Positions 2,968-63,744 are shown, counted from the stretch's first letter. The stretch: DNA of 64,000 nucleotides from an uncultured Dehalococcoidales bacterium (GCA_964428725.1 CAYRYW010000002.1:27733-91732); one strand, 5' to 3'. Made by a program: numbers and translations. Notes: generated from the letters alone by a model not told the origin.

Positions 2968-2986
2968 TCGCGAACTCAAGTTCGCA
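2968..2986 (+). repeat. conserved palindromic hairpin motif GCGAACTCAAGTTCGC (copy 1/12)
   Basis: 6-bp stem GCGAAC/GTTCGC with 4-nt loop, immediately after stop of 2725..2952. Confidence 0.7.
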
Positions 2987-3007
2987 AAATAAGGAGACGA
3001 AGAGTCA

Positions 3008-3403
3008 ATGTTAAAGGGTACATCTGGTCGAGAAGTCGTGTTTCATATCCAGGATGGCAAGCAGCACTTAATCTCTCCTCCTCCAGGTTGGGAGCGCGGA
3101 GAGGTGAGGAGCGATGGTGCTGCTTGGGTTAACAGGAAGAAGTCGATGAGTGTCATTGCGAGCATCTCTGTTGAATCAGATGGCAAGCACTGGCTTCATG
3201 TGTCTTGTGCACATTTTAGAAGGATGCCGACCTATGAAGAGATGGCGATGGTGAAGAATGTTTTTGTCGGCAGAGACAAGTACGCGATCAGCGTGATGCC
3301 TCCAACCGAAAAGCATGTGAATATTCATAGGTACTGCCTTCACTGGTGGTCCTGCATGGATGGGCATCCGCTTCCGGAGTTTTCCTCTGGCGGAACCATC
3401 TGA
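3008..3403 (+). CDS. hypothetical protein (His/Cys-rich)
   Basis: 131-aa ORF; AAGGAGACGAAG SD-like upstream. Confidence 0.5.
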   Translation: MLKGTSGREVVFHIQDGKQHLISPPPGWERGEVRSDGAAWVNRKKSMSVIASISVESDGKHWLHVSCAHFRRMPTYEEMAMVKNVFVGRDKYAISVMPPTEKHVNIHRYCLHWWSCMDGHPLPEFSSGGTI

Positions 3404-3418
3404 ACTCGCCTCTAGTTT

Positions 3419-3435
3419 CGCGAACTCAAGTTCGC
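3419..3435 (+). repeat. palindromic hairpin motif copy 2/12
   Basis: CGCGAACTCAAGTTCGC 15 nt after stop of 3008..3403, directly abutting a promoter. Confidence 0.7.
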
Positions 3436-3445
3436 AATATTCATG

Positions 3446-3474
3446 TTGACAAAAGAATAACACGGTTGTAATTT
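3446..3474 (+). promoter_or_regulatory. sigma70-like promoter TTGACA-N17-TAATTT
   Basis: tgTTGACAaaag...ggttgTAATTT, 10 nt downstream of hairpin motif. Confidence 0.45.
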
Positions 3475-3523
3475 TCGGGCACAGTGTCTCGGGCGATTGA
3501 TGTCCGATTGAAGGGGTGCGTCG

Positions 3524-3931
3524 ATGACCAGTGAAGAATTGTTGATGTTGAAGGAAAGTCCGGGTTTTGCTTACATAGCTGCTCCGTATTCGCATGAATC
3601 ACAGGCGATCACTTTAGGGCGCGTGAGGATCGTCAATGCCGTGTGTGCTGCATTGATGAAAGAGGGCGTTCATCTGTTCTCTCCCATTAGTCACTGTCAT
3701 CCAATTATGAAGGCGGGCAATCTGCCTGGGGACTTCGGTTTCTGGGGTGGTTACAACAGGAAGATGCTCAGTCATTCGGAGCATTTTGTTGTCTTGGAGC
3801 TAAAGGGTTGGAAGGAATCGGATGGTGTTAACGGCGAATCCAAGACGGCCAAGGGGCTCCATGTTCCACGCATAGGAATAAGCTGGGAAGAGATTTGCGA
3901 CAGGTGGCTGGATCAGGCGCTCGGCATTTAG
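3524..3931 (+). CDS. hypothetical protein (possible nucleoside 2-deoxyribosyltransferase-like/DUF1937-like fold; weak)
   Basis: 135-aa ORF; motifs AYIAAPYSH ... LFSPISH reminiscent of that family; from memory only. Confidence 0.4.
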   Translation: MTSEELLMLKESPGFAYIAAPYSHESQAITLGRVRIVNAVCAALMKEGVHLFSPISHCHPIMKAGNLPGDFGFWGGYNRKMLSHSEHFVVLELKGWKESDGVNGESKTAKGLHVPRIGISWEEICDRWLDQALGI

Positions 3932-3992
3932 GGCTCGGTTGAAAGATGTTGTTGTTTACCTGGGCAGGGTGCCCGGTGTTGAGGAGGAAAGA

Positions 3993-4625
3993 ATGTTCGA
4001 GAATGTAGAAATCGGAGACAAGATCGTAGCGTATCGCGGCAATTACACGGATAAGATCCTTGTTACCGTGACCGACATAACCAACAAGTACATTAATACT
4101 CGCTGTGATCGCGGTGATAGAAGTGAGCGGGACGCTCGCTGGCATAAGTCTGATGGAGTTAGGACAAGATCAAGCAATGTAAAAGATGCCAACAAAGAGA
4201 GGATCACAGACGATGAAGAAGTTGTTGCCGAAGTTGAGAGGGTGTGGGCAGACGAGAATGAGCGACAGAGTCTTTTGAGAGAGAACAGAACAACTGCTGC
4301 AATCATACGGTCACTTTGTATTGACTTGGATTTGCCTGGCAATAGGGTTGCTGGCTGTATGCTCGGCAATGTCATAATTGCCTTAAAAGACCTTGGGAGG
4401 GTGGCAGGCGGAGATGAGCCTGCAAAAAGAAGCAATGGGCGTTATCCGCATCCGAAGTGTCCCTCTTGTGGCAAGCCCATGAATAAAACCATGACCAAGG
4501 GGAAGGCTGTAAAGCCGACCGATCCGTGGGCGTTTTGCCGAAACAAAGGATGCAAGCTGCATGGTAAGGATCAGATACTAAGAGGGAAGCTCAGGAAGCT
4601 CAAAAAGAAGAGCAAATCTTCCTAG
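3993..4625 (+). CDS. hypothetical protein with C-terminal zinc ribbon (CPSCG...C..GC)
   Basis: GAGGAGG SD 6 nt before ATG 3993 (ORF open from 3939). Confidence 0.5.
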   Translation: MFENVEIGDKIVAYRGNYTDKILVTVTDITNKYINTRCDRGDRSERDARWHKSDGVRTRSSNVKDANKERITDDEEVVAEVERVWADENERQSLLRENRTTAAIIRSLCIDLDLPGNRVAGCMLGNVIIALKDLGRVAGGDEPAKRSNGRYPHPKCPSCGKPMNKTMTKGKAVKPTDPWAFCRNKGCKLHGKDQILRGKLRKLKKKSKSS

Positions 4626-4645
4626 TCACGGATTGGAGATGACAG

Positions 4646-5056
4646 ATGAGAGTACCAAAGAGGTTCATACCTGGTTTCCCTAGTTGTCGGTTCAAGTGGT
4701 TAGAGAACAAGCTCCGGGATCTGCACTTGAAGCTGTTCCGGGGGTATTACGATGTTTTCATCCCTCCTTCGATGACAAACGGAGGCAAGGGGGTTTATAT
4801 CTGGAATGGCGGCCCTGAGATGACTTCCGATGAGATAGTCAGTGCTCAGCCTTTCACAGGCATGGGAGTGGATTGTCCATGGGAGTTCGTGTCTAGCGAT
4901 GGCACCGAGGAGACCTCGGACGATCTGTGTGTCCAGATAAGCAAGAAATGGCAGGCGTATTTCCTAGCGATTGGACAGCCAGGGGAAGAAGAGCGGTTGG
5001 CCGAGATAAGAGAGATGTCGGATCGGGCGCTCAAGCTCGTGAGGGATCGAGACTGA
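4646..5056 (+). CDS. hypothetical protein
   Basis: 136-aa ORF, TGATG overlap with next gene. Confidence 0.5.
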   Translation: MRVPKRFIPGFPSCRFKWLENKLRDLHLKLFRGYYDVFIPPSMTNGGKGVYIWNGGPEMTSDEIVSAQPFTGMGVDCPWEFVSSDGTEETSDDLCVQISKKWQAYFLAIGQPGEEERLAEIREMSDRALKLVRDRD

Positions 5057-5364
5057 TGGCCTACCGATCTGTTAGGAAGAAAAGGTTACAATCCATCCTC
5101 GGAAACGGCGGAAGCGATCTAGACAGCAGGGATGCGTCTATAAAGTCGATAAGAAAAGCGTTGCGTAAAGGTCTTATAAAAAGGCCGAGCAGGTGTTCGT
5201 ACTGCAAGCGTATCCCAGGTGTCGACGCTAAGGGAAATCCCAAGATAGAGGCTGTGCATCTGAAGGGGTATGCTCCAGAGCACCGTTTTGATTTTGAATG
5301 GTTGTGTGTAAGTTGCAGGTCCAGGGCCGTGTGGGCAAAGAAGAGGAAAGTTCAAAATGGATAG
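5056..5364 (+). CDS. CxxC...H...EHR...CVSCR zinc-ribbon protein (paralog of 11272..11685)
   Basis: Motif C-x2-C-x3-G-D-x2-GN-KI-x-A-H-x-KGY-x2-EHR-D-x2-W-CVSCR shared with 11272 ORF. Confidence 0.5.
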   Translation: MAYRSVRKKRLQSILGNGGSDLDSRDASIKSIRKALRKGLIKRPSRCSYCKRIPGVDAKGNPKIEAVHLKGYAPEHRFDFEWLCVSCRSRAVWAKKRKVQNG

Positions 5365-5536
5365 AGACATAAAGAGGTTCCTGGTTGCGTTGGCAGAATT
5401 CCTAGACGTCCACGACGCGGAGTTCAAGAGCGAGAGCGGAGGCATAAAGGTGTCGATTGGAAGCAATAACTTTGATACCGATCTCACCTTGTCGGCTGAT
5501 GCTGCTCGGTATCTAGTCGAGACGTATGGATCTTGA
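5357..5536 (+). CDS. small hypothetical protein (59 aa)
   Basis: Unlisted ORF ATG 5357 to TGA 5536 filling gap; overlaps neighbours by 8 and 11 nt. Confidence 0.3.
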   Translation: MDRDIKRFLVALAEFLDVHDAEFKSESGGIKVSIGSNNFDTDLTLSADAARYLVETYGS

Positions 5537-5732
5537 TTTTGTTGTCCTTTTGATCCTGGTGGCAGGGTTCGCTTTGCTGATCGTCAAAGGGGTAGCATCG
5601 GAGCGCAGGTTTCGTAGAGGACATCGAGGGTATCGCTGGGGTAGTCATAAGAAGCCTCCGAAGTGGGCGACCTTGAAACGGAGCGGGCGCAAGAAATGGA
5701 AGAAGGTGCTTAGGATGAAGGGTGGAAGATGA
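5526..5732 (+). CDS. small membrane protein with basic tail
   Basis: 68-aa ORF, one TM helix then R/K-rich tail. Confidence 0.4.
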   Translation: MDLDFVVLLILVAGFALLIVKGVASERRFRRGHRGYRWGSHKKPPKWATLKRSGRKKWKKVLRMKGGR

Positions 5733-6187
5733 TCAAATTTGACATTGCGGTCAGGTGCGATATTTGCCCTGAGGACAGATACCGGGCTTTGACAGTGCGG
5801 CTTCCGCCATGTGGGATCGATGAGGAGCCGATAAGGGATCTTCTTTTTTGGGCTAGCAAGGACGCTTGGTTTGGGCTGTGTTGTGATTGCGAGTCGTTGC
5901 CTACATGTGATTATGCTCGCGCTAACTCTACAATGCGCGACTATGACGGCGAGCAATTGCTTCCTGAAACGGTGAAGATTATCAGAGATCTTGGCAATGC
6001 GTTCAACAGTCGAATGCAGCGTTTGGTGGGCTACTATTCCGATGATACCGAGGTGGCTTCGTTGCATATTCTCAGGGACAGGGCCATCGACAGGGGCGAC
6101 ATTGAGGCTGCCATTGAGTGCAGTCGGAGGATGGGCTTTTTGGAAGGGCTAAGGTCTCAGGTTAAGAGTGTGAAATGCGGAAGATAA
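5729..6187 (+). CDS. hypothetical protein (Cys-containing)
   Basis: 152-aa ORF, ATGA overlap. Confidence 0.5.
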   Translation: MIKFDIAVRCDICPEDRYRALTVRLPPCGIDEEPIRDLLFWASKDAWFGLCCDCESLPTCDYARANSTMRDYDGEQLLPETVKIIRDLGNAFNSRMQRLVGYYSDDTEVASLHILRDRAIDRGDIEAAIECSRRMGFLEGLRSQVKSVKCGR

Positions 6188-6471
6188 AGCGAAAGAAAAA
6201 GAAACCCGTGGAAGAATTGCACAGTGGCAGGCTCAACAGGTGTCTGGACTGTGATGCCATGTGGAACAGTGGGAACAAATACTACAAGGGGTTTCCTGTA
6301 AAGAACGAGACTTCTCCTACTGCTACAGATGAGGGGTTCATTCGGTCTTCCGGGCCTTTCGTTTCTTCTGATACAGAGTGCGTTCATTGCGGCTCTGAAA
6401 ATGTGGTAGAGAACGGGAAGGAGAGGGAGAATGAAGGACGGAATGACAGATGCAGTGTCACAGGATTTTAG
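6175..6471 (+). CDS. hypothetical protein (basic N-terminus, CxxC pairs)
   Basis: 98-aa ORF. Confidence 0.4.
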   Translation: MRKIKRKKKKPVEELHSGRLNRCLDCDAMWNSGNKYYKGFPVKNETSPTATDEGFIRSSGPFVSSDTECVHCGSENVVENGKERENEGRNDRCSVTGF

Positions 6472-6679
6472 CGCTAAGTTCGACGCCTTGATAATCAGGG
6501 CGGCGACGATTCGAAGTAAGAGCACATACCCTTTGCCGAAGAGGGCATCGGAGGCGGTCAGGAGGATCGAGGCGGGCATGGAGAGCAGGGATCCGCTGTC
6601 CGTGTTTACAATGATCAGCGACCTTAGCTATTTCATCGGGTACATGGAGGCTCTTACAGATCCCAAGGGTGGCAAGTGA
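6431..6679 (+). CDS. hypothetical protein
   Basis: 82-aa ORF; GGAGAGGGAG SD-like before ATG. Confidence 0.4.
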   Translation: MKDGMTDAVSQDFSAKFDALIIRAATIRSKSTYPLPKRASEAVRRIEAGMESRDPLSVFTMISDLSYFIGYMEALTDPKGGK

Positions 6680-7041
6680 TGTGCAACTGCTTCAAGTGTA
6701 GGCATCACAGGATACGCGGTGATGGTGCATTGATATGCAAAAAGGATGGCGAGTATCTCGATCCGGAGACCCAAGGCAAGTGTATCGAGGAGTGCAAGTG
6801 CATTGGGTTCGAGGAGGATCTGGAATACTCGAACTGCCTTGAGTGTGACCTTTTGTTCGAAATACAGGGACGCAAGGGAATGTACTTGTGCGAAGGCAAT
6901 ACGCGTCGATTCGGAAACGGGTTGGTGGATGTCTCGGAGCCTGGGGTAAGGGCGCTCATGCGTGAAAGGGGGTGTGGCTGTTTTTCCCAAAAAGAGAAGG
7001 CTTCCCAGTCTTCACGGGAAGAAGCAAAGGAGCCAAGATGA
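6676..7041 (+). CDS. Cys-rich hypothetical protein (11 Cys in first 75 aa)
   Basis: 121-aa ORF, ATGA overlap. Confidence 0.5.
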   Translation: MMCNCFKCRHHRIRGDGALICKKDGEYLDPETQGKCIEECKCIGFEEDLEYSNCLECDLLFEIQGRKGMYLCEGNTRRFGNGLVDVSEPGVRALMRERGCGCFSQKEKASQSSREEAKEPR

Positions 7042-7044
7042 GCG

Positions 7045-7437: not shown

Positions 7438-7440
7438 CAT

Positions 7441-8306: not shown

Positions 8307-8309
8307 CAG

Positions 8310-8779: not shown

Positions 8780-8780
8780 G

Positions 8781-10626: not shown

Positions 10627-10643
10627 GCGAACTTGAGTTCGCG
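10627..10643 (+). repeat. palindromic hairpin motif copy 3/12 (TTGA-loop orientation)
   Basis: GCGAACTTGAGTTCGCG 6 nt after stop of HicB-like gene. Confidence 0.7.
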
Positions 10644-15247: not shown

Positions 15248-15264
15248 CGCGAACTTGAGTTCGC
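15248..15264 (+). repeat. palindromic hairpin motif copy 4/12
   Basis: CGCGAACTTGAGTTCGC 32 nt after stop, 7 nt before TTGACA. Confidence 0.7.
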
Positions 15265-15271: not shown

Positions 15272-15300
15272 TTGACAAAGCATCATGCGGCCTGTAAATT
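15272..15300 (+). promoter_or_regulatory. sigma70-like promoter TTGACA-N17-TAAATT
   Basis: ctgTTGACAaag...gcctgTAAATT upstream of 15334 gene. Confidence 0.5.
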
Positions 15301-19168: not shown

Positions 19169-19184
19169 CGCGAACTCAAGTTCG
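19169..19184 (+). repeat. palindromic hairpin motif copy 5/12
   Basis: CGCGAACTCAAGTTCG 25 nt after MazG-like stop. Confidence 0.65.
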
Positions 19185-19287
19185 TGTTCTGTTTGCAAAA
19201 CAGATTTGACCGTAGTACAGGTTGCCCAGTTTTTTAATTGCCAGTTGAACATTGGACAGGGTGAGTTCGATGAAAAGGAGGGCGAGG

Positions 19288-22298: not shown

Positions 22299-22315
22299 CG
22301 CGAACTCAAGTTCGC
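22299..22315 (+). repeat. palindromic hairpin motif copy 6/12
   Basis: CGCGAACTCAAGTTCGC 8 nt after stop of putative TerS. Confidence 0.7.
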
Positions 22316-22330: not shown

Positions 22331-25300
22331 TTGATAGTTACGACACGCAAGGGGAGAAAGAAGTCTGTAATAACCAAGGAGGAGCTGGCGGCCCATGCCG
22401 GTGACATGGTTGACGCCCTGACAGACGCAGAGCTAGAGCTGGTGATGGGCCTGATAGACGAAGATCCGGAGATTCAGATAGAGCACCACAAGACGATGCG
22501 CGGGCACTTGTACCACCGAGAGCCTGTCTCTATGGAGCAATTCATAGAGGATCCACATTACCTGGGCGAGTCTTGCTCGACTCTCTACCCAGAGCTTAAG
22601 AAAGATCTCATAGATCTGTTTGATTATCCATTCAGAGAAGTTGTGCTCACAGGCGGAATTGGAGTTGGCAAATGCCAACGAGGGGTGAACGAGCTTTATG
22701 ATCCGGTCATGGGGAGAAGGCTAACTGTAGAAGATGCTGCATCTTTTGGCAAGTACAAAGCGTGCGCCACGTTCAACAAGGATGAGCGGAAGACAGTGAG
22801 TGGAGGGTGCAAAGTATTCGAAAGCGGAAGAAAGAAGGCGGGGGATCTCGTGCTTGGGAGCGGGAAGAAGATTGGACTAACTCCTGATCACCCTGTCTTG
22901 ACACCGTGGGGATACAAGCCAGTCGGAGAGCTTAAGAAGGGGGATCTTGTTGCGACTTCGCGAGAGATGCCCTTACCTGAGATGCCTTTGGCTATTTCTG
23001 ACAATGAGGTCAAGTGGGTGGGCTACATCTTGGCAGACGGCGGTGTGACAACGTCTCGGATTGTCTTCGTAAAGGGTGTTGATGAAATAATCTCAGAGTT
23101 TTGGTCTCTGTCGGAATCGCTTGGCGGGGATGTGAAGGAAGAGGATGTGGATGCTGATGCGCGGAGGGTTCGTGTCCTGGGGCTTGATCGCTTGAGGGAT
23201 AAATTTGATCTCAAACACAAGTCCAAGGACAAGAGAGTTCCGAGTGAGTTCTACGGGCTAGACAATCGCCAGCTTGCCTTGTTGCTGAATCGCATTTGGT
23301 CGTGTGATGGATGGTTCTGTCGCAGGGATAAGAAAAAGGGCAACTGGGAGATTGGAATATCCTTAGCCAGTGAGCCGTTCGTGAGGGATATTCAACAGCT
23401 CTTGCTTCGTTTTGGGATTCACTCTCGGATGCGTCCGCGTGAGATGGGGTACACGCACAACGGAGAGAGGAAGCATAGCGATGCTTGGTCTTTGCAGGTG
23501 CTGGGTAGGGATGAAGTTATTAGGTTCTTGAATTCGATTGGAAACCTCGTAGGCAAGGAAGAAGATTGCGAGACTGCGCGGCGCGAACTTGAGTTCGTAA
23601 AGGGCAACTCGAACGTGGACATTACCCCCATGAACAGAGAGGTGATGACCAGGGTTCGTAAAGAGATCGGGCCGGTGCCCAAGAAGGCGTACTGGCCGCG
23701 TCCGGCGCAGGGCTCGCAAATGGGCCACGGGGTGTTCTTGAGATTCGCTGAGGCGTATGATCTTCCCGAGTGGTGCTCCTGGTGGGGTGGAGTATTCTGG
23801 GATGAGGTGGAATCGTATGAGTGCGGCGATGAGTTAGAGCCTGTGTATGACATCGAGGTTCCTAAGACGAGGAACTTCTCAGTGCACGGGGTTATCGTTC
23901 ACAATACGTTCGTGCTCTCAATAGCCATATGCAGGGTGCTTTACGAGCTGTCTTGCTTAGTGAATCCCCAGAAGACTTTCGGCCTGTCGTCGGGTACGGA
24001 GATGGTTATTCCGTTGATCTCAAAGAACCTTCCGCTGGCGCGTGCTGTCATGAAGACGGCGGTTGACGACAAGATCAAAGAGTCTCCGTATTTCATGAAC
24101 GAGTTCTCTCCGAAGATCTCCAAGGAAGCCACGCTGTTTCCTCATAACATCCGAGTGATCATAGGGTCGTACGGTAGTGAGCGAGTTCTTGGCTCGAACG
24201 TTTTCTGTGTTGGGCTTGATGAGTGCCTAATACTAGAGGCAGGTTTGACAACGGAAAGAAAAGGTGTTAGGCGATCCATGACAGTTGGAGATCTTCTGGA
24301 AATGAGTCCAGAGGACGCTGAAAACTGCAAGGTTGTAGGTTTTGATCATGCGGAGAATAAGCTCAAGGCTGGATGGTGGAGAATCAAGAAGTCCACGGTT
24401 CAAGAGCTTGTTGAGATCAGGACTGCGCTGGGGTCGGTATCGCCGTCGAGAAAACATCCCGTTCTTGTCCAAAGAGGAGACTGGCTTGTTTACGTTCATG
24501 CGGAGGATGTCGTCCCTGGCGATTTTGTTGTCATGGAGGATCGTGATGCCAGCGAAGGGGCAGACTGTAAGCGAAGAGCAGAAGAAAAAACAATCGGAGA
24601 AGATGAAGGGTCGAGAGTTATCGGAGGAGACGAAAGAGAAGATGAGATCTGCGCAAAAGGCGCGGTACGAGAATGGGTACGTCAATCCGATGAAGGGGAA
24701 GACTCAGTCAGAGGAGACGAAGAAGAAAATCAGCGAGGCCCAAAAGGGGAGGAAGTTCTCCGAGGAACATCGGCGGAAGATCGGAGAGGCGAATCGCAGA
24801 AGGAAGATCTCGAAAGAGACGCGGGAGCGAATGAGCGAGGCTCAAAAGAGCAAGGCACCTGCAAGCGAGGAGCACAGACGGAAGATAAGCGAAGCCAATA
24901 CAGGCAGGAAGCATACGGACGAAGCTCGTGCGAACATGAGCAAGGCTCAGAAGGGTCGCGCCCTGTCAGAGGATCACAAAAAGAAGCTGTCAGAGGCGGC
25001 CAAGAAGCGCACAGGAGAGGCGAATCACTTCTACGGAAAGACTCACTCCGAGGAGGCGCGGAAGAAGATGAGAGAGGGTCAGGCGGGTGTACAGCGGAAG
25101 CCTCACTCCGAAGAGACAAAGAGAAAGATGAGCGAGTCTCAAAAGGGGCGCAAGTTTTCCGAGGAGACGAAGGAGAAGATGAGAAATGCTGCGAAGCGTC
25201 GTGCAGCCGATCCAGAGTGGCGAAAGAAGATGAGCGAGTCGTCGAAGAGGGGCTGGGCAGAGGGCACCATTGGCCAGAACATGCCACCCCGGCACGGAGA

Positions 25301-28300
25301 GGCGAACCCTTTCTACGGGAAGAAGCACACGGAGGAAACGAAGGCGCGTCTGAGCGAGGTTGCAAAGGCGAGAGAACCTCGCGTGCATACGGAGGCGTCG
25401 AAGGATGCGATTTCCGAGGGGAACATGCGGGCTATCAAGGACGGGACGAGGACGTACAAGTTCCGTGCGACGTCTCCGGATGGTGGGGTTGTGCCTTGCC
25501 GGACAGAGGCGGAGAAGAGACTAGCCGATCATCTTTGTTCTCAGGACGGGGTTGTTTCTGTTGTCGGCGAAGACAAGATGCCGTTTGTGGAGTACGATTT
25601 CAACGGCCAATCCAGGATAACGGTTGCGGACTTCATGGTAACAGCAAGCGACGGTCGAATCATTATCGTAGAAGGGAAGGCGCAGGGGTCGCTATACGGA
25701 GAGAGAGAGAGGGCTCGGTTTCTTGCTACATGGGAGCACTGCAAGGCGTGCGGGTTCGACATGATTATATCATTCAACCATGCAAGGGACCCCGATCTGT
25801 CTCTCGGTCCATTTGTGACACAGGAATTTGTGGAGATGGTGAAACAGGGGTTTGTTCCCATGTCACTGCTTTCGGACAATCGTGCCACTGGGGTTGCGGC
25901 AAGGCGAACGGGCTTTGGGCATCACGGGAAAAGAGTAGCTGGAGGAGACAGAAAGTATCTGTTCAGCACTGTGTCTCCGGACGGGGTGATCGTCAATTGC
26001 AGGACAAGGAACAGCCTGCGTGTAGCCGATCATCTTTGCTCTCAGAGCGGGGTTGTTTCTGTTGTAGGCGAAGACAAGATGAGTGCTATTTATCACAAGG
26101 TGAATGGAGAGGGGCGCCAGACGGTTGCAGACTTCATGGTTACTCGCAGCGACGGACATATTATTTTTGTGAATGTAGAGAGCAACACGTTTGCAGAGAG
26201 CAAGGGCCTCTGTCATCGTATGAATGCAATGTGGGACCATTGCAGGGCTGTCGGTTGCAGTTTCATGATGGTATTTGCCGATGCGTCCGTGGATCCAAAT
26301 GTGTGGGAGGGTCCGTTTGTCACGGATGCGTTTGTCGAGCGCGTCATGGGCACAGGGGTGATTCGACAAGGATTAATGGCCGATGCCAGAGTTCCTGCGT
26401 TGACGGTGGCGTCTCCGAGCGGGAGCACGATCCATTGCGCGACAGAGAAGGAGATGAGGCTGGCGGAGTGCCTATGTCAGCAAGAGGGCGTGGAGTCCAT
26501 TTCCTCAACAAAGAGGGAGTGCGTGGCGAGGTTCGAGTTCGAGGGGCGGGCGCGAAGGGCTGTGGCGGACTTTATTGTTCTCATGCGGGACGGGAGAGAG
26601 GTGGTTGTCTATTCCATACATGGGACAAACGCGAGGAGCGTATCATCAAGGAGTGCGCTCATGGCTATGTGGGATCACTGCAAAGAGATGGGCATGAGCA
26701 TGTTGCTAGCCCTCAAGGAAGCGAGGAATCCAGATCTGTCCCTTGGTCCGTTCGTGACGCAGGAGTTCGTGGATGGGTATATGCGCGGAGATGCCAAGAG
26801 GAGTGCGCTCATAGACAAAAGGCCAAAGGGAAGGAGACCATCTCCGTTGAAGGGCAGGAAACTTGGTCCTCGCAAGAAAATGACGAACTTGAGTTCGCAG
26901 GAATCCGCCCCGAAAGAACACATGTCGAAGAAATCCCTGTCGGTCTTTGCCTCGCGGAAGTAGTGTCCGTTTCTGCCCTGCCCGCTGAACAAACATATTC
27001 TCTATGCACGGAGCATCAGACGTTCATCGCTGATGGGTTCGTGGTGCATAATACGAACTTCCCGCCGAACCGTAAGAGCCAGCAGATCACTACAGCTATG
27101 GGCCAGAAGAAGACAAAGGCTCACTTTGATATTGTGGAGAAGGTCTACCGGAACTTGGTCCGGCGAATAAAGTCCAGGTTCCAGGTTGCAGGCGGGGATT
27201 TCCCTGGGATGATCATCTTGGCTTCTTCGGCTGCTACCCTGGACAGTTTCACTGAGCGGAAAATCCGGGAGAGCAGGCTTGATTCCTCTGTCTTCGTCCG
27301 AGATCACACTCAGTGGACGGCCAAGCCTGGGTCTAACTTCTGCGGGGAGAAGTTCTGGGTTCTGTGTTCGGCGTCCTCTATGCGCTCTAGGATAATCGGA
27401 GACGATGAAGTGAAGCACTTCACCGACGAGTGGCTGGAGGAGAACGATTCTTTTTTGATCGACATTCCGGTTGAGTACAAGTCGGACTTCGAGACAGACA
27501 TTGAGAATGCACTAAGGGACCTTGCTGGTATATCTACTCAGGCTATATCGATTTATATCCAGAGGCCCGACGCGGTGGACGCGTGTGTGAGCGAAGAGAT
27601 GGAGCATCCGTTTACTGCGTATGAGTGGACATCCGGGCAGGCCGGGGCGTTCAAGTGGAACATTCTGTGTAACATGTTCGAGCGTCGGCTGCCTGGCGGA
27701 TACACGGAGACAGCGTGGTCCCCCAAGATTAATCCTTCGAAGATGAGATGGTGTCACATTGATACATCTCTCTCGGGGGACTGTACGGGTTTCTGTGTTG
27801 GTCATATAGACAAGTGGGTTGAGGTAGTAAGGCGAGACGGGGACGGGGTTCGTTACACGGACCTGGCACCCTCTTACGTCATTGACGTGATGTTGCGAGT
27901 GAACCCACCGGCTGGAGAGCAAATCTACATGCCGGACTTGCGTCGTTTCATTTACGAACTACAGGCACATGGTTATCAGTTCCTTGGGTTTTCGTCGGAC
28001 ACATACCAGTCGGCGGAGATGCACCAGCAAGTAAAGAGAAGGGGGATTTCTACCCATATCATATCGACGGATACGTCCACGGATCCTTACGATGAGCTGA
28101 AGATGGCGATGTACGAGAACCGGATTACGTACTATCATTATCAGCCATTTATTGAGGAAATCAAAGACTTGGAATATGATCGCAACGTGGGCAAGATCGA
28201 TCATCAGCAGGCCGGGTGTTTTGTCGGAGAGACGCGGATTCCTCTTCTGGATGGAAGCTGCCCTATGATCTCAGAGTTGGATGGGGTGGATACGTGGGTG

Positions 28301-31721: not shown

Positions 31722-32579
31722 ATGCCATTTATCCAAGGATCCAAGCTGGACAAGTATTACCGTGGCAGCCTAGCGCACCGGAGTCATGCCGTGGACGTGG
31801 CTGTAGCGGAGCGATTCGAGGGCAAGAAAGCTCAGGTCATGGTAGTCCAGGAAGACTCGGCGGTAGTGGTTATGGATAACAGTCCTGTCCTGATCGTTGG
31901 TTACGAGATGGACGGGGACATTGCCAAGATCACAAAAGAGTCCATATGTAAAGATATACCCGTGATAGAGAGCGGTAACATGGATGCTTTTGTAGCAGGT
32001 GAGCTTAGGGACATTGCGAAGAAGATGGCAATGGGCGAGGACGTTTCACGAACTCAAGTTCGCGAGCTGGCATCTGTGATGGAGCCGGGCGGGGACTATT
32101 GGCTCACTGGCGTTTTGTCCAAAATAGACGAGTCTACTGAGGACTCTGATTGGTTCAAAATGTACGAGGCCAACCAGGAGAAGGTCCGCACTGCCATGCA
32201 CGGTAGTATTAGGGCTATCGAGGGGGCGGTCCCGAGTACAAAATACGCGAGCATTTCCCCTGGAAAGCTCCATGCGTTTGAGGAAGAAATCAGGGAATCC
32301 ATGGGTGTCATATCGTCCGTTATTCAAGGAATAGTTGACGAATGCGACGCGATCATGTTTGATCAAAAGGAAGATGAGTTCTTTGGTGCCACCTGTGAAT
32401 CGTTGAAAGTTGAAGCGCAAGTCCTCACGGGCTTGCTCGGCAAGGCAGAAAAGTTGATGCGTTCTGAAGATATGGAGCGCATGTCCGTGGCACATGACAA
32501 ACTTGCTGGGCGAGCAAAACAAATGGCAGTCGTTGCCGCTTACCTCAAAAAGCGCAGCGCAAACGAAGTGAGGAGCTAG
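31722..32579 (+). CDS. head-module hypothetical protein
   Basis: 285-aa ORF between portal and scaffold-like gene. Confidence 0.5.
   Translation: MPFIQGSKLDKYYRGSLAHRSHAVDVAVAERFEGKKAQVMVVQEDSAVVVMDNSPVLIVGYEMDGDIAKITKESICKDIPVIESGNMDAFVAGELRDIAKKMAMGEDVSRTQVRELASVMEPGGDYWLTGVLSKIDESTEDSDWFKMYEANQEKVRTAMHGSIRAIEGAVPSTKYASISPGKLHAFEEEIRESMGVISSVIQGIVDECDAIMFDQKEDEFFGATCESLKVEAQVLTGLLGKAEKLMRSEDMERMSVAHDKLAGRAKQMAVVAAYLKKRSANEVRS
32047..32064 (+). repeat. palindromic motif copy 9/12, inside coding sequence
   Basis: CACGAACTCAAGTTCGCG encodes SRTQVRE in 31722 frame. Confidence 0.6.
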
Positions 32580-39857: not shown

Positions 39858-39874
39858 GCGAACTTGAGTTCGCG
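39858..39874 (+). repeat. palindromic hairpin motif copy 10/12
   Basis: GCGAACTTGAGTTCGCG 3 nt after stop, 10 nt before next ATG. Confidence 0.7.
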
Positions 39875-55784: not shown

Positions 55785-55801
55785 CGCGAACTTGAGTTCG
55801 C
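55785..55801 (+). repeat. palindromic hairpin motif copy 11/12
   Basis: CGCGAACTTGAGTTCGC 3 nt after stop. Confidence 0.7.
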
Positions 55802-59842: not shown

Positions 59843-59866
59843 CCGAGGATTTTGACTGTGAATTGT

Positions 59867-59895
59867 TTGACACAGCATTCTGTTTCCAATAGAAG
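59867..59895 (+). promoter_or_regulatory. possible promoter TTGACA-N17-TAGAAG for endonuclease gene
   Basis: gtTTGACAcag... weak -10. Confidence 0.25.
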
Positions 59896-59920
59896 CGCAG
59901 CACATGTTGCTGTGAAAGAA

Positions 59921-60790
59921 ATGGAGACTAATATGGTGTTGTCAAGCGAGGAGCAGTTGGAAGTTGTTAGGCTGTACGAGGGTGACGATATGACGACGAA
60001 GGGCATTGCGAGCAGATTTGGTGTCTCTGATACCACTGTCCGCAATGTTCTCCGTAGTCATGGGATCACTCCTCACAGGGGGAGTAAGGCGATTTTGCCA
60101 GAGGCAGAGGATCGTATGATTTCTCTGTATGAATCTGGCCTCAATGTCCATGATGTCGCCAAGGGGTGCGGTGTTGTTCCGTCCACGGTTCTGAAGGTTC
60201 TGCGTCGCAGAGGGATCGAGCGTCGAGCGAATGTTAAGCGCAAGGTTCTTTCCGATGAGCAACGTTTGGAGCTTGCTCGTAAATACGCGGACGGATCTAC
60301 ATTTAGCGACTTAGAGAGTGAGTACAAGGTGTCTTGCTCGGTGGTCAAGAGTTGCTTGGATGAATTCAATGTTGAGCACCGAACCAGTGGCAGGGCCGGG
60401 TCGATTGAGTACATGGACACCCTTGGTCAAACGTGGATGTTCAAATCGACCTGGGAGCATCTTTACGCGCAGTGGCTGGACAAAGGGGGCTTCAGGTGGT
60501 CGTATGAGCCGCGCAGTTTCGATCTGAGCGAGCGACGGTGCTACACACCAGATTTCTCTGTGGTTGTCGATGGGTCTGTTGAATACCACGAGGTAAAGGG
60601 TTGGCTTAATGAAAAGGCAGAGGATCGCATGCGTGAGTTTGTGTCCATGTATCCGAGCGAGACGCTTGTTCTCGTTGGGCCTTCTGACATGGCGAGACTA
60701 GGATTGGTAGAAGAATGGTATCAGCGGCATTCGATGGCGGATGTCGTCGATGCTTTTAAGGCGTCCCTGGTAGCGAAGGAGGAGAGATGA
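59921..60790 (+). CDS. free-standing homing-endonuclease-like protein: 3 tandem HTH (NUMOD1-like) modules + PD-(D/E)xK nuclease domain
   Basis: Repeats EEQLEVVRLYEG..TKGIASRFGVSDTTVRNVLR x3; nuclease motifs E.L, YTPDF, VEYHEVKGW; start could be 59852 (TTG) or 59933. Confidence 0.55.
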   Translation: METNMVLSSEEQLEVVRLYEGDDMTTKGIASRFGVSDTTVRNVLRSHGITPHRGSKAILPEAEDRMISLYESGLNVHDVAKGCGVVPSTVLKVLRRRGIERRANVKRKVLSDEQRLELARKYADGSTFSDLESEYKVSCSVVKSCLDEFNVEHRTSGRAGSIEYMDTLGQTWMFKSTWEHLYAQWLDKGGFRWSYEPRSFDLSERRCYTPDFSVVVDGSVEYHEVKGWLNEKAEDRMREFVSMYPSETLVLVGPSDMARLGLVEEWYQRHSMADVVDAFKASLVAKEER

Positions 60791-61548: not shown

Positions 61549-61566
61549 GGCTGGAAGGAGAGAGTT

Positions 61567-62091
61567 ATGTCACGAGCAGCAGTCGATGATCTTATGCAAG
61601 GATTCCGGTTCCACGTTGTCGCTCAAACGGCAGGCGGAGAGAATCCCCTTGAGTATGCTCGCCAGGGTGAATACCAGGGCGGTGGGCAAGCCGGTTTCAC
61701 GTCGGCAACTCTTCCTGAGCTATCGGTAGAGGTCGCTGAGTACAGAGAAGGCACATTCCAGTGGACTCAGAAGTACGCTGGCGTTCCTACTGTCTCCGAC
61801 GTCTCCTTGATGCGTGGTGTTGCGAAGCAGGATACTGCATTCTTGGACTGGGTAAGAGCCTCAGTTGATGGAGAAGAGTATCGTTGCGACGTAACCATTT
61901 ACCACTACCAACGCACAGAGATGGGTCAAGCAAGCCAGTCTGAGGTTGGAGACGACATCCGTCGCGTGGAATGCAAAAACTGTGTTCCTATTCGTGGTAA
62001 AGCGGCTGGCGATTTCGATTCAACATCTTCCGAAGTCTCTGTTTCTGAAGTTGACTTCGCGTTGGAATCTTTCGAGATCAAAACTTCGTAG
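61567..62091 (+). CDS. tail tube protein
   Basis: 174 aa; N-term LMQGFRFHV; directly after sheath module; paralogous to exteins of next gene. Confidence 0.6.
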   Translation: MSRAAVDDLMQGFRFHVVAQTAGGENPLEYARQGEYQGGGQAGFTSATLPELSVEVAEYREGTFQWTQKYAGVPTVSDVSLMRGVAKQDTAFLDWVRASVDGEEYRCDVTIYHYQRTEMGQASQSEVGDDIRRVECKNCVPIRGKAAGDFDSTSSEVSVSEVDFALESFEIKTS

Positions 62092-62108
62092 AGAGGTGGT
62101 GACGCTCA

Positions 62109-63686
62109 ATGGCCAGGAGTCGCACAGAAGATCTGATGTTAACGCATCGTTTCTGGCTAATGGACGTCGTCCCTAGCGCTACGTTTCCCTTCCTTGTTTT
62201 AGGTACGCCCTTCATGGGTTTCCAGTCGATCACCTCTCCTGAGTACACGGCAGAAATGGTCGAGATCAAAGAGTTGAACTCGATGTACAAGAAGTACGGG
62301 TACGGGGGAGGCTCGGTCTCCCCTATTACTCTTACTCGTGGCGTGCGCGGATACGACGAAACAATGTGGAACTGGATGCAGACGGCTATTCGTGGAAATG
62401 ATATGACGAATCGCCATCTCGTCCTTCTCCATTTCACAAACATGGCCATGCCGGTAGGTGGAGATAGCGATCTCCCGTTTGACGCTTGGGAGACCAGGCC
62501 GTTTTTGCCGGGCAAGGCATGGCTTCTGTGGGATTGCTTAGATGAGGACACTGAGATCCTGACAAGCAAAGGATGGAGGGGAAGCGATGGTGTTAAGGAG
62601 GGCGATCTTGTTTACTCGATGAATGTCGAGACGGAGAAGCTGGAAACAGTCCCAGTTGATGGGTATGTGAAGCGTAGAAGGGCGCCTGATGATGACATGG
62701 TTTCTGTAGCAGGACGACGTTTTAACTTCAGGGTTACGGGTAAACACGGGTTCTACCTCAAGCCTTCCAATGGTGGCGCCATGGTTCGGCATCAGGCTGC
62801 GGATCTTTTGTCGTTAAAAGGAGAGCACTTGATGCCCGTTGCTTCTCGCATGTCTAGCGAACACAAGGGTGTCGATTTGACCGACGATGAGCTTCGTTTT
62901 GTCGCGTGGTTTGTAACGGATGGTCACCTCAAGGAAGGCCAGAGGCTGATCATATCCCAAGCCAAAGAATACCGTAACGACATTAGGGATCTTCTGAGTA
63001 GGATAGGCTTGCACTTCACGGAGCGGGTTATTGAGCGATCCGTGGATGATGGTTCGTATGCGAATGGCAAGCCTCTTCACGAGTTTGGCGTCCCCAAGGG
63101 AACGGGGGGCAAGGGCCTGTCCGGGTGGAGTAGGTACAGCGAGTATCTTGACAAGGATATTTCTGAATTGCTTCACGACATGACCCGTGATCAGTTTATG
63201 GTTTTCTGGAAAGAGCTTGTAAAAGGAAATGGCTTCTTCCTGAATGAAGAAGATGACGATTGGATAAACAATTCTCAGTTGTGGTGTCCCTCCAAGGAGC
63301 AGGCTGACGCCCTTGTGTGGATGGCGACGGTGCGCGGAGTAGCGCTTAGCTGCTATGAGCGGGAGACAGAAAATGGGCATGCTATGTATTGCCTTACGGC
63401 ACGGGACAAAGAGTGGATAATTGTTCGCCCTGGACGCATGGCGGAAAGAGAAAAGCCCCTTATCAAAGAGAGGGTTTTTGTAGATGAATTCGTATGGTGC
63501 GTATCGAATAGGAATCGCAGTATCGTAACAAGAAGAGGCGGAAAGGTCGCTATCATGGGTAATTGCCTCCCGACTCGGTACAAGGCGGCGTCAGACTTCG
63601 ACGCAACCAGTTCGAGCGTCAGTATCTCGGAGCTAGAGATACAACCCCAAGCGGTCACAGAAATGACCCTGCTGGATCCGACGTAG
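62109..63686 (+). CDS. tail tube protein paralog precursor with intein
   Basis: Exteins LMLTHRFWLMDV... and CLPTRYKAASDFDATSSSVSISELE parallel 61567 protein. Confidence 0.65.
   Translation: MARSRTEDLMLTHRFWLMDVVPSATFPFLVLGTPFMGFQSITSPEYTAEMVEIKELNSMYKKYGYGGGSVSPITLTRGVRGYDETMWNWMQTAIRGNDMTNRHLVLLHFTNMAMPVGGDSDLPFDAWETRPFLPGKAWLLWDCLDEDTEILTSKGWRGSDGVKEGDLVYSMNVETEKLETVPVDGYVKRRRAPDDDMVSVAGRRFNFRVTGKHGFYLKPSNGGAMVRHQAADLLSLKGEHLMPVASRMSSEHKGVDLTDDELRFVAWFVTDGHLKEGQRLIISQAKEYRNDIRDLLSRIGLHFTERVIERSVDDGSYANGKPLHEFGVPKGTGGKGLSGWSRYSEYLDKDISELLHDMTRDQFMVFWKELVKGNGFFLNEEDDDWINNSQLWCPSKEQADALVWMATVRGVALSCYERETENGHAMYCLTARDKEWIIVRPGRMAEREKPLIKERVFVDEFVWCVSNRNRSIVTRRGGKVAIMGNCLPTRYKAASDFDATSSSVSISELEIQPQAVTEMTLLDPT
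62535..63563 (+). mobile_element. intein (343 aa) in tail tube paralog, LAGLIDADG-type
   Basis: CLDEDTEILT (block A), RVTGKHGFYL (block B), FVAWFVTDGHL and FWKELVKGNGFF dodecapeptide motifs, C-term FVWCVSNRNRSIV...VAIMGN|C (penultimate Gly). Confidence 0.65.
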
Positions 63687-63691
63687 AAGTG

Positions 63692-63720
63692 TTGACAAAC
63701 AACCCTAAAGGGGTTAAAGA
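63692..63720 (+). promoter_or_regulatory. sigma70-like promoter TTGACA-N17-TAAAGA
   Basis: gtgTTGACAaac ... gggtTAAAGA, followed by hairpin motif then gene. Confidence 0.35.
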
Positions 63721-63728
63721 ACTAGTAC

Positions 63729-63744
63729 ACGAACTTGAGTTCGT
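63729..63744 (+). repeat. palindromic hairpin motif copy 12/12
   Basis: ACGAACTTGAGTTCGT between promoter and AAGGAG SD. Confidence 0.65.

Follow-up and report, generated by a model that had tools for sequence, protein, structure and literature searches.

Repeated palindromic sites in phages

The closest precedents for the motif discussed here are the dyad repeats of Cluster O mycobacteriophages, the stoperators of Cluster A phages, and the PeSL cassettes of T4-like phages. The motif was analysed in a 64-kb stretch of DNA (the window) from the 157-kb genome of an uncultured T4-like giant phage, and the pattern extends past the window edge. Cluster O genomes contain dozens of dispersed 17-bp dyad repeats (TGTTCGG-N3-CCGAACA), whose function the authors leave open while predicting that a dimeric protein binds them (PMC4351075). 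The motif resembles these repeats in its invariant arms and variable centre, in being orientation-free and mostly intergenic with about one third of the copies in ORFs, and in not being tied to promoters. The Cluster O repeats differ in the order of the arms (GTTCG..CGAAC as opposed to CGAAC..GTTCG) and in their 7-3-7 spacing, and they are found in Mycobacterium siphoviruses, with no known operator family reported for them. Judged by sequence, the motif is a dyad repeat of the Cluster O kind but does not belong to the same family, as the sequences are non-homologous.

The stoperators of Cluster A phages (L5, Bxb1) are short intergenic sites at which the bound repressor stops elongating RNA polymerase (PMC9283540, PMC6550527). 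Like the motif, they occur in many copies in short intergenic gaps throughout the genome with a consensus that differs between sub-lineages. Stoperators, however, are asymmetric sites of 13-14 bp that are oriented with transcription and bound by the monomeric immunity repressor of a temperate phage, whereas the motif is symmetric, orientation-free, and found in a T4-like phage. Being palindromic rather than asymmetric and oriented, it departs from a stoperator on this point. No integrase or CI-type repressor was present among the Pfam matches listed for the 82 ORFs of the window (64 of 157 kb).

PeSL cassettes consist of an intergenic stem-loop and a sigma70-type early promoter and flank accessory ORFs in T4-like genomes (PMC2839356, PMC4122927). 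A PeSL-like layout is seen at the copies at 3420 and 15249 and at position 19264 of one relative (L386), and more weakly at 19170. In PeSLs, however, conservation extends over ~100 bp including the promoter and the stems are G/C tracts of varying sequence that usually lie within the promoter, whereas here the 16-bp palindrome alone is conserved, most copies lack a promoter, and copies are also found in the structural module and inside genes.

Two further systems are relevant. The SOS or 'Cheo' box of B. subtilis and S. aureus has the consensus CGAACN4GTTCG, and the motif has the identical palindromic 5+4+5 core and half-site spacing (PMC9578287). Phage GIL01 carries SOS boxes on its own genome, which are controlled by host LexA together with gp7 and the truncated LexA homologue gp6 (PMC6182141, PMC4551915). 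The likeness lies in phage SOS boxes combined with a phage LexA homologue that lacks the cleavage domain, but GIL01, a temperate tectivirus of 15 kb, has a few boxes distributed over three promoters, whereas here a dozen boxes are found per 64 kb of a T4-like genome, mostly off promoters, and the LexA-like gene is found in one lineage only.

Number and placement of the copies

The inner 14-mer CGAACT-YR-AGTTCG occurs exactly 12 times in the window, where ~0.2 copies are expected by chance, and is by far its most repeated palindrome and the sole strongly repeated one. The exact pattern GCGAACTYRAGTTCGC was found 7 times against an expectation of 0 (100 shuffles), and GCGAAC-N4-GTTCGC with at most one mismatch was found 11 times (expected 0.18, shuffle maximum 2). 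The copy at 63729 (ACGAAC..GTTCGT) deviates at both outermost positions, yet these still pair as A-T. The 16-mers start at 2970, 3420, 10627, 15249, 19170, 22300, 23583, 26883, 32048, 39858, 55786, and 63729. A possible thirteenth copy at 47484 was rejected; it has two arm-breaking mismatches, lies within a gene, and is at chance level. The central step is CA in five copies and TG in seven, and the two are a single double-stranded sequence read from either side. The initial annotation had reported 12 non-random copies with both loop orientations and had suggested a comparison with shuffled sequence; the count, the orientations, and the excess over shuffles all held up, and the copies are the same ones, although its start positions were off by 0-2 nt.

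Nine of the 12 copies are intergenic, though intergenic DNA makes up only ~3% of the window (binomial P ~5.5e-12), which agrees with the concentration at cistron boundaries described initially. These nine lie 3-42 nt past a stop codon, and six of them (2970, 10627, 22300, 39858, 55786, and 63729) also lie 11-22 nt ahead of the next start codon. The copies are given without a strand. Copy 1 (GCGAACTCAAGTTCGC, 2970..2985), also intergenic, follows the stop of 2725-2952 by 17 nt and precedes the ATG at 3008 by 22 nt, and copy 2 (again GCGAACTCAAGTTCGC, 3420..3435) lies 16 nt past the stop at 3403, so that the two bracket the gene 3008-3403 (DUF7694). Directly downstream of copy 2 is an early sigma70-type promoter read from the sequence (TTGACAAA-N15-TAATTT, 3446..3474, + strand), whose -35 is 10 nt away and with which the copy forms a PeSL-like composite. 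For copy 3 (GCGAACTTGAGTTCGC, 10627..10642), the preceding stop (10621) is 5 nt away and the following ATG (10661) 18 nt. Copy 4 (GCGAACTTGAGTTCGC, 15249..15264) follows the stop at 15216, and directly downstream of it lies an early promoter (TTGACA-17-TAAATT, 15272..15300, + strand) whose -35 is 7 nt away. Copy 5 (GCGAACTCAAGTTCGT, 19170..19185), 25 nt past the stop at 19144, has downstream of it a TTTGCA that weakly resembles a promoter element and, beyond that, a DHH phosphoesterase gene at 19252.

Copy 6 (GCGAACTCAAGTTCGC, 22300..22315) is intergenic; the stop at 22290 lies 9 nt before it, and the large terminase ORF starts 15 nt after it (22331). Two intragenic copies lie in this ORF: copy 7 (GCGAACTTGAGTTCGT, 23583..23598) within its LAGLIDADG intein, and copy 8 (ACGAACTTGAGTTCGC, 26883..26898) at the exact 3' junction of a ~2.3-kb insertion that holds a NUMOD3 homing-endonuclease ORF. 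In a relative without this insertion (L004), the corresponding position of the terminase gene carries an orthologous copy. Copy 9 (ACGAACTCAAGTTCGC, 32048..32063) is the third intragenic copy and encodes the codons R-T-Q-V-R of a 285-aa ORF between the portal and the prohead protease. Copy 10 (GCGAACTTGAGTTCGC, 39858..39873) fills the gap from the stop at 39854 to the SD/ATG (39885) of a 458-aa gene, and copy 11 (GCGAACTTGAGTTCGC, 55786..55801) occupies an intergenic gap, with the ATG at 55814 following after 12 nt and the sheath gene ~1.2 kb farther downstream. Copy 12 (ACGAACTTGAGTTCGT, 63729..63744), whose outer pair is A-T, ends 14 nt before the ATG at 63759; a promoter-like sequence read upstream (TTGACA-17-TAAAGA, of the TTGACAAA type, 63692..63720, + strand) has a predicted start site that abuts it, and the copy begins at about +2. 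This is the only copy that overlaps or abuts a promoter. The copies at 3420, 15249, and 19170 are upstream of a -35, and the remaining copies have no promoter in the gap; the TTGACAAA promoter is adjacent to 3-4 copies and absent at 8-9.

Conservation among related phages

The motif was found in this phage and in all its relatives (MCP identity 63-76%), so that the absence from related genomes named initially as grounds for refutation does not apply. The family set comprises 96 unique CGAAC-N4-GTTCG sites from the window and these relatives, where copies also occur in replication modules and ahead of tRNA genes. The arms R-CGAAC/GTTCG-Y are invariant in 96 of 96 sites and in every lineage. The centre is lineage-specific (TCAA, TCGA, TCCA, CYRG, or ACGT) and near-uniform within each genome: it is TCAA in 12/12 window copies and TCGA in 7/7 copies of another clade, and there are CYRG and ACGT clades.

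Orthologous positions keep the motif across lineages, including one inside a coding gene. Copy 9 is found at the same codons in all 19 relatives with DNA covering the gene, each with the centre of its own lineage. The nucleotides of the motif form an invariant island within this 285-aa ORF, with synonymous positions frozen, and wobble positions 7 and 10 co-vary (ACT CAA / ACC CGG / ACA CGT) in changes that track the other sites of the same lineage. The orthologues of copy 10 have the opposite orientation or a different centre, and that of copy 11 is at equal distance in the TCAA, TCGA, and ACGA lineages. These results demonstrate that orthologous sites change in place and that the motif undergoes concerted evolution.

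Duplex site or stem-loop

In 96/96 sites CGAAC is preceded by a purine, and in 96/96 GTTCG is followed by a pyrimidine. The outer-base combinations (G..C 47, A..C 21, G..T 16, A..T 12) fit independent assortment, and the non-pairing A..C combination is as frequent as this predicts (21/96). Because the outer bases assort without pairing covariation, the constraint is a purine on each half-site and not a base pair. The four central bases are self-complementary in 86/96 sites, and the central step (CA 28, TG 29, CG 25) has no orientation bias relative to transcription. Taken together, the invariant arms, the R/Y rule without pairing, and the lack of orientation bias point to two symmetric half-sites in double-stranded DNA that would be read by a dimer, and the motif most likely offers proteins a docking site on DNA rather than forming an RNA hairpin. 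The near-invariant arms of the 'stem and loop' described initially are confirmed, but its hairpin framing is weakened by the self-complementary loop and by flanks that do not covary.

A possible but doubtful alternative is that the motif acts as a transcript-level hairpin (in mRNA or non-template DNA) with a 6-bp stem and a 4-nt loop. At cistron boundaries such a hairpin would attenuate or terminate transcription, stabilise 3' ends, or mark a processing point, much as the intercistronic hairpins of T4 and T7 or the stem-loops in T4-type PeSL cassettes do. Each copy can indeed fold, at -5 to -10.5 kcal/mol with a predicted stem of 6-9 bp, and the palindromic arms would yield the same RNA stem in both orientations. 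Most intergenic copies lie 0-40 nt past a stop and are followed after 1-6 nt by the next SD or directly by a tRNA 5' end, positions that fit an RNA-level element as well. Three window copies and L386 19264 have a promoter-like -35 hexamer 6-10 nt downstream (three of them TTGACAAA), the terminator-promoter arrangement of PeSLs, whose T4-type stem-loops terminate efficiently in reporter assays (PMC2839356). Elements that conserve structure only, however, allow covariation in the stem, whereas these arms are invariant in 96 sites of all lineages and the flanking R/Y rule is symmetric but non-pairing. None of the 96 sites uses a stable tetraloop type as its four-base centre, conserved copies lie inside ORFs where termination would harm, and no Rfam family matches the motif. 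A T-tract is absent 3' of all 12 window copies, although a lenient terminator scan flagged 15249 and 19170 owing solely to scattered Ts. True terminators with a T-tract (T8) are found at 37105-37187 and 46896-46946, and the phage employs genuine ones downstream of the capsid gene, so it does not depend on the motif for termination. An intrinsic (Rho-independent) terminator, in which a U-tract comes directly after a G+C-rich hairpin, was rejected because the copies lack such a tract, in agreement with the initial annotation. An RNase III substrate needs a duplex of roughly two helical turns (about 20 bp), which in many cases contains an internal loop. The predicted stem is far too short for a T7-type processing site, which makes the RNase III role suggested earlier unlikely.

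The SOS box core and its candidate binders

All 12 window copies and all 96 family sites have the exact 5+4+5 arms and spacing of CGAAC-N4-GTTCG. By sequence, the core of the motif is the canonical Gram-positive SOS (LexA) box, a consensus taken from B. subtilis and S. aureus that may not be that of the host. The SOS-box identity of the core had been missed in the initial annotation. The motif departs from bona fide SOS boxes in three respects: it lies at cistron boundaries or inside genes and mostly without a nearby promoter, whereas LexA regulons sit on damage-inducible promoters that the boxes overlap; its spacer is genome-uniform and lineage-specific, whereas LexA regulons tolerate variable, usually A/T-rich spacers; and it has an additional fixed R/Y position.

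SOS boxes are read by a winged-helix dimer, and a LexA DNA-binding domain is encoded by a relative with the same TCAA motif (IMGVR_UViG_3300017990_000012). Residues 1-57 of this 159-aa LexA-like protein match LexA_DNA_bind (Pfam E 1.7e-20) and LexA DNA-binding domains in the PDB. The protein consists of the DNA-binding domain only, with no S24 cleavage domain, and no full-length homologues of it were found. The gene is missing at the syntenic position in two other lineages, and no LexA-like gene is present in the 64-kb window. The cellular LexAs nearest to the phage domain lie behind boxes of equal ..AC-N4-GTTC.. geometry, which read CTRYAC-N4-GTTCAG and not RCGAAC-N4-GTTCGY. The RHH protein (7441-7986) that had been proposed as the binder is an ORFan for which 5.8 billion proteins yield no homologue beyond its own phage lineage, whereas the motif is family-wide; it would be at most a lineage-specific reader.

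We favour the interpretation, with a probability of about 0.55, that the motif is a two-fold symmetric double-stranded DNA site for a dimeric protein, of the LexA (SOS) box type, that is kept at cistron boundaries. Of the three candidates in the initial annotation, this is closest to its 'operator', since the sequence pattern suggests a symmetric, orientation-free duplex site with invariant arms. The site consists of two R-CGAAC half-sites four bases apart with a flexible pyrimidine-purine step at the dyad, retained at cistron boundaries, before tRNA genes, beside some early promoters, and at a few fixed intragenic points. A LexA-type winged-helix dimer would occupy these sites. Because the LexA-like protein and the RHH protein are both lineage-restricted, host LexA is the simplest family-wide candidate, with the truncated LexA of the phage as a possible further binder in at least one lineage. 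Since almost every site is located away from promoters, within long arrays of co-directional genes, the main effect of the bound protein would be that of a roadblock or insulator against transcribing RNA polymerase, like a symmetric 'stoperator', with a classical +1 operator role at 63729. As a global regulator, it would couple phage expression to the occupancy state of the bound protein.

The motif could instead be the operator of a dedicated phage regulator unrelated to LexA (MerR-like or an unrecognised small protein), with a coincidental SOS-box identity, but this is very unlikely. MerR-family operators are dyads of similar size, and a MerR-like HTH protein of 171-174 aa is conserved beside helicase genes in the replication module of three lineages (L211, L382, and L386). 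A lineage-specific centre with uniform copies is also the pattern of a co-evolving regulator and site, as in Cluster A stoperators. The arms, however, are constant in every lineage despite the highly variable early genes of the phage, MerR sites normally lie within the 19-20 bp spacer of a promoter, which is not the usual context here, and no MerR-like protein is found in the window. Two independent coincidences would also be needed, as the core is an exact SOS box and a relative has a LexA DNA-binding domain.

It is similarly improbable that the motif is a recombination linker or small mobile palindrome, spread or homogenised without a trans-acting reader, that provides micro-homology for the shuffling of gene cassettes (PeSL-like modular exchange, or REP/MITE-like). 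The bracketing of gene 3008-3403 by two copies, the copy exactly at the homing-endonuclease insertion junction in the terminase gene, and the uniform centres per genome, as homogenisation would give, speak for this reading, and PeSLs mediate such exchange in T4-like phages. The mobile element proposed initially is nevertheless contradicted by orthologous sites that switch centre in place across lineages (63-76% protein identity), one of them within a coding frame where insertion is impossible. Drift and conversion would not enforce invariant arms in all lineages, a 16-bp stretch serves poorly in homologous recombination, and nothing beyond these 16 bp is conserved, the copies sharing neither flanks nor target duplications nor a terminal signature. 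The top 25 Pfam families of the 82 window ORFs included no transposase or RAYT-type gene, and there was no Y1 transposase among the Pfam families listed for them. REP/BIME elements are likewise short intergenic palindromes that follow stop codons in many copies and both orientations and are recognised by RAYT transposases, but they are imperfect, 20-40 nt long, and RAYT-linked, with a GTAG head and BIME clusters, none of which is seen here, and a REP/MITE-type palindrome, which would show insertion polymorphism, was rejected for a perfect 16-mer without shared flanks whose orthologous sites evolve in place.

Implications for the phage family

It is conceivable, if rather unlikely, that this uncultured clade of 125-195 kb T4-like phages has its early genes, structural operons, and tRNA genes wired to the host SOS repressor. 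If so, LexA bound to perfect maximal-affinity boxes at cistron boundaries would form roadblocks that silence or throttle the phage across its whole genome, or alternatively the replicating phage genome would soak up LexA and trigger the SOS response. In both cases the giant phage, though nominally lytic, would possess a switch for damage-sensing dormancy or for manipulation of the host. The non-cleavable LexA DNA-binding domain captured by one lineage would then serve as an override, and the lineage-specific centres would track the LexA preferences of different hosts.

Distribution of the palindrome in the phage genome

The exact 16-mer GCGAACTYRAGTTCGC occurs seven times in the window and not at all in shuffled sequence, and when one mismatch is allowed 11 copies are found against an expectation of 0.18. 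A twelfth copy (63729) is altered in both outermost bases, which now form an A-T pair, and the inner sequence CGAACT-YR-AGTTCG is present exactly 12 times in the window, where it is the sole strongly repeated palindrome. These counts bear out the motif as described in the initial annotation, and all of the copies that it listed are present, but its positions are wrong by 0-2 nt. The two "loop orientations" (five copies against seven) are a single duplex sequence that differs only in the direction of reading.

Nine of the 12 copies lie in intergenic DNA, which makes up ~3% of the window (P ~5e-12). The other three are internal to ORFs. [quoted passage not shown] A DUF7694 gene (3008-3403) is flanked on both sides by identical copies (2970-3435), which is the layout expected if the copies sometimes act as recombination linkers for accessory genes. 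About 8 kb past the right end of the window, in locus L389 of the same phage, a thirteenth perfect copy at 19626 lies 3' of the stop of a plus-strand gene; directly after it come two minus-strand genes, the first on that strand to be observed in the phage. In the relative L211 (IMGVR_UViG_3300017990_000012), the copies at 7560 and 12278 are 2-6 nt upstream of tRNA-like genes (called by eye), and the motif therefore appears to mark RNA-gene as well as protein-gene boundaries.

Genomic setting

The window corresponds to bases ~6354-70353 of a metagenomic contig of 157,265 bp (JGI 3300029258, Ga0309772_1000083). All credible genes in the window are on the plus strand, the G+C content is ~52% and there is a strong skew of G over C. 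The right two thirds hold a distant T4-like virion module that includes an intein-interrupted large terminase, a gp20-type portal with an intein (28845-31718), a gp21-type protease, a gp23-type capsid protein, a sheath protein, and a gp19-type tube protein. The left third consists of small early ORFs behind sigma70-type promoters. Two of the encoded proteins are zinc-ribbon paralogues (4927-5364 and 11272-11685) with the common motif KGY-x2-EHR-x-D-x2-W-x-CVSCR, and many other early ORFs encode small Cys-rich proteins. The window has no tRNA.

None of the deposited phages is close, as the capsid protein is at most ~39% identical to theirs, the matches being to uncultured huge phages. A megablast of window positions 1-20000 against 50,697 phage records gave zero matches. 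The capsid query had no match in 185,579 genomes, and thus provides neither a prophage clue nor a host clue. A query with the DUF5131 protein retrieved unrelated phages only, and queries with DnaB and with the protein directly upstream of the large terminase gene (21373-22290) retrieved only themselves.

Selfish elements are unusually numerous in this genome. The large terminase is encoded by a 2179-aa ORF (22331-28870) with several interruptions: a LAGLIDADG intein (aa 161-525), an insertion of ~2.3 kb (aa ~753-1518) that is missing from relatives, and a probable mini-intein (aa ~1963-2103). Across the insertion, a second frame (24342-26963, 873 aa) that encodes a homing endonuclease with five NUMOD3 motifs is open alongside the terminase frame. 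The gp19-like tail tube protein (62109-63686) is also intein-bearing, like the portal, and the gene of a free-standing endonuclease (59852-60790) lies between the sheath and tube genes; its product has three HTH repeats, and the C-terminus is PD-(D/E)xK-like. The HTH_7, HTH_23, and Sigma70_r4 matches in the window were rejected as a regulator, since they are apparently part of this homing endonuclease. The ORF at 53935-54402 encodes a protein of SMDLVSK-like tandem repeats, which probably explains the four occurrences of the 12-mer AGATCCATGGAC in the window.

Conservation and architecture of the site

Relatives were collected with capsid and sheath queries in IMG/VR (~45 loci, protein identity 46-76%). 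The search of related genomes that had been proposed in the initial annotation found CGAAC-N4-GTTCG in all but four of 21 capsid loci. An exact 14-mer scan of IMG/VR was uninformative; among the matches listed, most were single ones on contigs outside the phage family.

The window and its relatives together provide 96 distinct sites, in which the invariance of the arms is built into the search pattern. The base 5' of CGAAC is a purine and the base 3' of GTTCG is a pyrimidine at 96 of 96 sites, neither of which was imposed by the search. The outer bases occur as G..C (47 sites), A..C (21), G..T (16), and A..T (12), which is near the marginal products. The two bases thus assort independently, indicating that there is no selection for pairing, only for equal base class in each half-site. 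In the four-base centre, the outer bases (positions 7 and 10) are complementary at 86 of the 96 sites and the central step is pyrimidine-purine at 84 (CA 28, TG 29, CG 25, TA 2), and neither reading direction is favored relative to transcription. Each lineage has its own centre, which is nearly uniform in each genome: TCAA at all 12 window copies, TCGA at 7/7 sites of a second clade, mostly TCCA in a third, C-YR-G in a fourth, and ACGT or ACGA in a fifth.

The site in the 285-aa ORF is positionally conserved in 19 relatives, which are those whose fetched DNA extends there. Two other sites are also conserved across lineages, namely window 39858, which fills the gap before a 458-aa gene, and window 55786, ~1.2 kb upstream of the sheath gene; a terminase-internal site is common to the window and the relative L004. 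Within the 285-aa ORF, where the rest of the coding region averages 69% column identity, the nucleotides of the motif form an invariant island. Its positions 7 and 10 are codon wobble positions and shift jointly (ACT CAA, ACC CGG, ACA CGT), and the centre tracks the one used elsewhere in the genome of the same lineage. This joint change in place rules out a mobile-element insertion at this site, so that the mobile palindromic element suggested in the initial annotation was rejected, and it shows that the DNA sequence itself is under selection. Orthologous sites can differ in the orientation of the centre (TTGA at window 39858, TCAA in the relative L002).

DNA site or RNA hairpin

From sequence comparison, we favor the motif as a two-fold symmetric duplex site for a dimeric DNA-binding protein, with a probability of roughly 0.55. 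Each copy can also be folded into a predicted hairpin of 6-9 bp (-5 to -10.5 kcal/mol), and a function at the transcript level would suit the location of the copies after a stop codon and ahead of the next Shine-Dalgarno sequence or, in a relative, right before a tRNA gene. The stem-loops of T4-type PeSLs (promoter-early stem-loop cassettes) are experimentally active, which lends the hairpin reading some weight. However, an invariant arm sequence is a poor fit to a structure-only element, the purine/pyrimidine rule is symmetric yet non-pairing, the "loop" is self-complementary, no stable tetraloop type is used, the U-tract is absent, and conserved copies are found inside genes. Independence of orientation alone does not discriminate, because a palindrome yields the identical stem either way. 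Ordinary terminators are used separately by the phage: Rho-independent terminators (a G+C hairpin followed by T5-T8) are present after the capsid gene (37105-37187) and after a 617-aa late gene (46896-46946), where the phage thus uses ordinary host-type termination. A T-tract follows none of the 12 copies, in agreement with the earlier view that the motif is not a classical terminator. Overall, we consider a hairpin acting in the transcript unlikely.

RNase III, which had been named as a candidate, was rejected since the stem does not reach the length that the enzyme needs, and no Rfam family was matched. A homing-endonuclease target and a restriction site were set aside as less likely, as a phage would not retain its own cleavage sites, and so were a parS-like centromere, a cruciform or endonuclease VII hotspot, a nut/boxB-like antitermination site, and a primosome site; the grounds were self-cleavage, site length, copy number, symmetry, or the absence of a supporting gene.

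Candidate binding proteins

In Bacillus subtilis and Staphylococcus aureus the SOS box is CGAACN4GTTCG (PMC9578287), and the invariant core of the motif is identical to it in every letter. The duplex site is most probably a LexA-type DNA operator; that the protein reading it is itself a member of the LexA family is a more tentative proposal. A tblastn search of all fetched DNA with LexA queries gave one clear match, on the contig of L211, a relative with 76% capsid identity and the same TCAA motif as the window. The ORF encodes 159 aa, of which residues 1-57 match Pfam LexA_DNA_bind (E 1.7e-20) and, in the PDB, LexA DNA-binding domains only. Beyond residue 57 neither a homologue nor an S24 cleavage domain was found, and there are no full-length homologues in 5.8 billion proteins. 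The gene is in the replication module, close to DnaB, helicase, and RecA-like genes; two other lineages do not have it at the syntenic position, and it is also missing from the window. In a LexA alignment scan of viral contigs, most of the homologues were on contigs of 20-60 kb that do not belong to the phage family, and a single family member was among them. An S24-peptidase match in the relative L037 was spurious, the protein being a W-rich repeat protein. Phage GIL01, which uses SOS boxes and encodes the truncated LexA homologue gp6 (PMC6182141), is a precedent for the situation in L211.

Two genes of L211 at 8277-10004, beside the LexA-like gene, encode a membrane protein of 376 aa and a partner of ~190 aa. 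Homologues of the 376-aa protein (45-54% identity) are found in many bacterial MAGs, several of them labelled Patescibacteria (Uhrbacteria, Falkowbacteria, Minisyncoccia), and the gene pair is also together in at least one ordinary bacterial contig, which may be a hint of the host.

The arms are constant while the early genes turn over fast, and a conserved host protein would therefore be the simplest family-wide reader, for which LexA is the obvious host candidate by sequence. The uniform lineage-specific centres would then result from selection for top affinity to the LexA of each host. The cellular LexA domains closest to the L211 protein (47-70% identity) are mostly of myxococcal type, and the sequence upstream of those lexA genes is CTRYAC-N4-GTTCAG or similar, which has the AC-N4-GTTC geometry of the phage motif but not its outer bases; of 80 myxococcal lexA genes, whose box is this semi-palindrome, only 4 are preceded by a perfect GAAC-N4-GTTC. 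Alternatively, co-evolution with a phage regulator, as in the stoperators of Cluster A (PMC9283540, PMC6550527), would explain the uniform centres. A MerR-like protein of 171-174 aa that is conserved in three lineages is an alternative candidate reader. The RHH/winged-helix protein (7441-7986) put forward in the initial annotation is an ORFan with homologues within its own lineage only and was dropped.

Promoters and proposed action

Near-identical sigma70-type promoters, TTGACAAA-N13-yTGTAAATT, are present at 1909-1937, 3446-3474, 15272-15300, and 63692-63720, the fourth being in the structural region just ahead of the gene after the tail tube. Copy 63729 is the only one in a classical operator position, as it starts at ~+2 relative to a TTGACA-17-TAAAGA promoter. 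The -35 of an early promoter follows the end of copy 3420 after 10 nt and that of copy 15249 after 7 nt, copy 19170 is upstream of a weak promoter-like sequence, and the same copy-then-promoter arrangement is found at 19264 in the relative L386. The other intergenic copies are in gaps too small for a promoter. The window has 20 matches at ≤1 mismatch to the T4 late-promoter motif TATAAATA against 17 expected, which is no enrichment, and none of them is ahead of a structural gene, so the palindrome cannot be placed relative to late promoters.

With few copies at promoters, gaps that are too short, and no enrichment of T4-type late promoters, the likeliest target is the elongating polymerase. 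The bound protein would most likely act as a roadblock or insulator to it at unit boundaries; as a second option, the replicating phage genome would titrate the binder.

Comparison with known systems

A single palindromic operator dispersed over a replicon is known from plasmid RK2, with its 12 KorB operators, and from phiC31, with its conserved inverted repeats. The nearest phenomenon is found in Cluster O mycobacteriophages, which have more than 30 dyad repeats of 17 bp that are predicted to bind a dimer and whose function is unexplained (PMC4351075). These share with the motif invariant arms, a variable centre, freedom of orientation, a partly intragenic location, and independence from promoters, but the sequences are not homologous. 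Stoperators are similar in distribution and proposed action but differ in being asymmetric sites with a set orientation and a monomeric binder. PeSLs (PMC2839356, PMC4122927) share the T4-like setting, and their composite of stem-loop and early promoter is matched at 3-4 copies, but they are neither limited to a narrow 16-bp conservation nor found in the structural module. The SOS box has the sequence and geometry of the motif, but placement at promoters and a variable spacer belong to the SOS box only. We file the motif with the genome-wide operator-like dyad repeats, from which it is distinguished by its identity to the SOS box, its T4-like giant-phage setting, and its documented concerted evolution in place.

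Significance

The motif is real, non-trivial, and conserved; a terminator, an RNase III site, and a mobile element are all rejected as readings of it. Genome-wide dyad repeats of unexplained function were already known in phages; here the repeat can be linked to the well-understood LexA operator class and to a candidate protein family, so that the question is accessible to direct experiment. Should LexA or a LexA-like protein bind the repeat, it would represent the first case in which SOS-type control extends over structural as well as tRNA genes in a giant T4-like phage, and a symmetric counterpart to stoperator silencing. The paired wobble change in the 285-aa ORF is a clear example from nature of a DNA site that constrains the coding sequence around it. 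Host range or the evolution of specificity in an uncultured phage group can be approached through the lineage-specific centres, and the motif is a useful marker for spotting members of the phage family in metagenomes.
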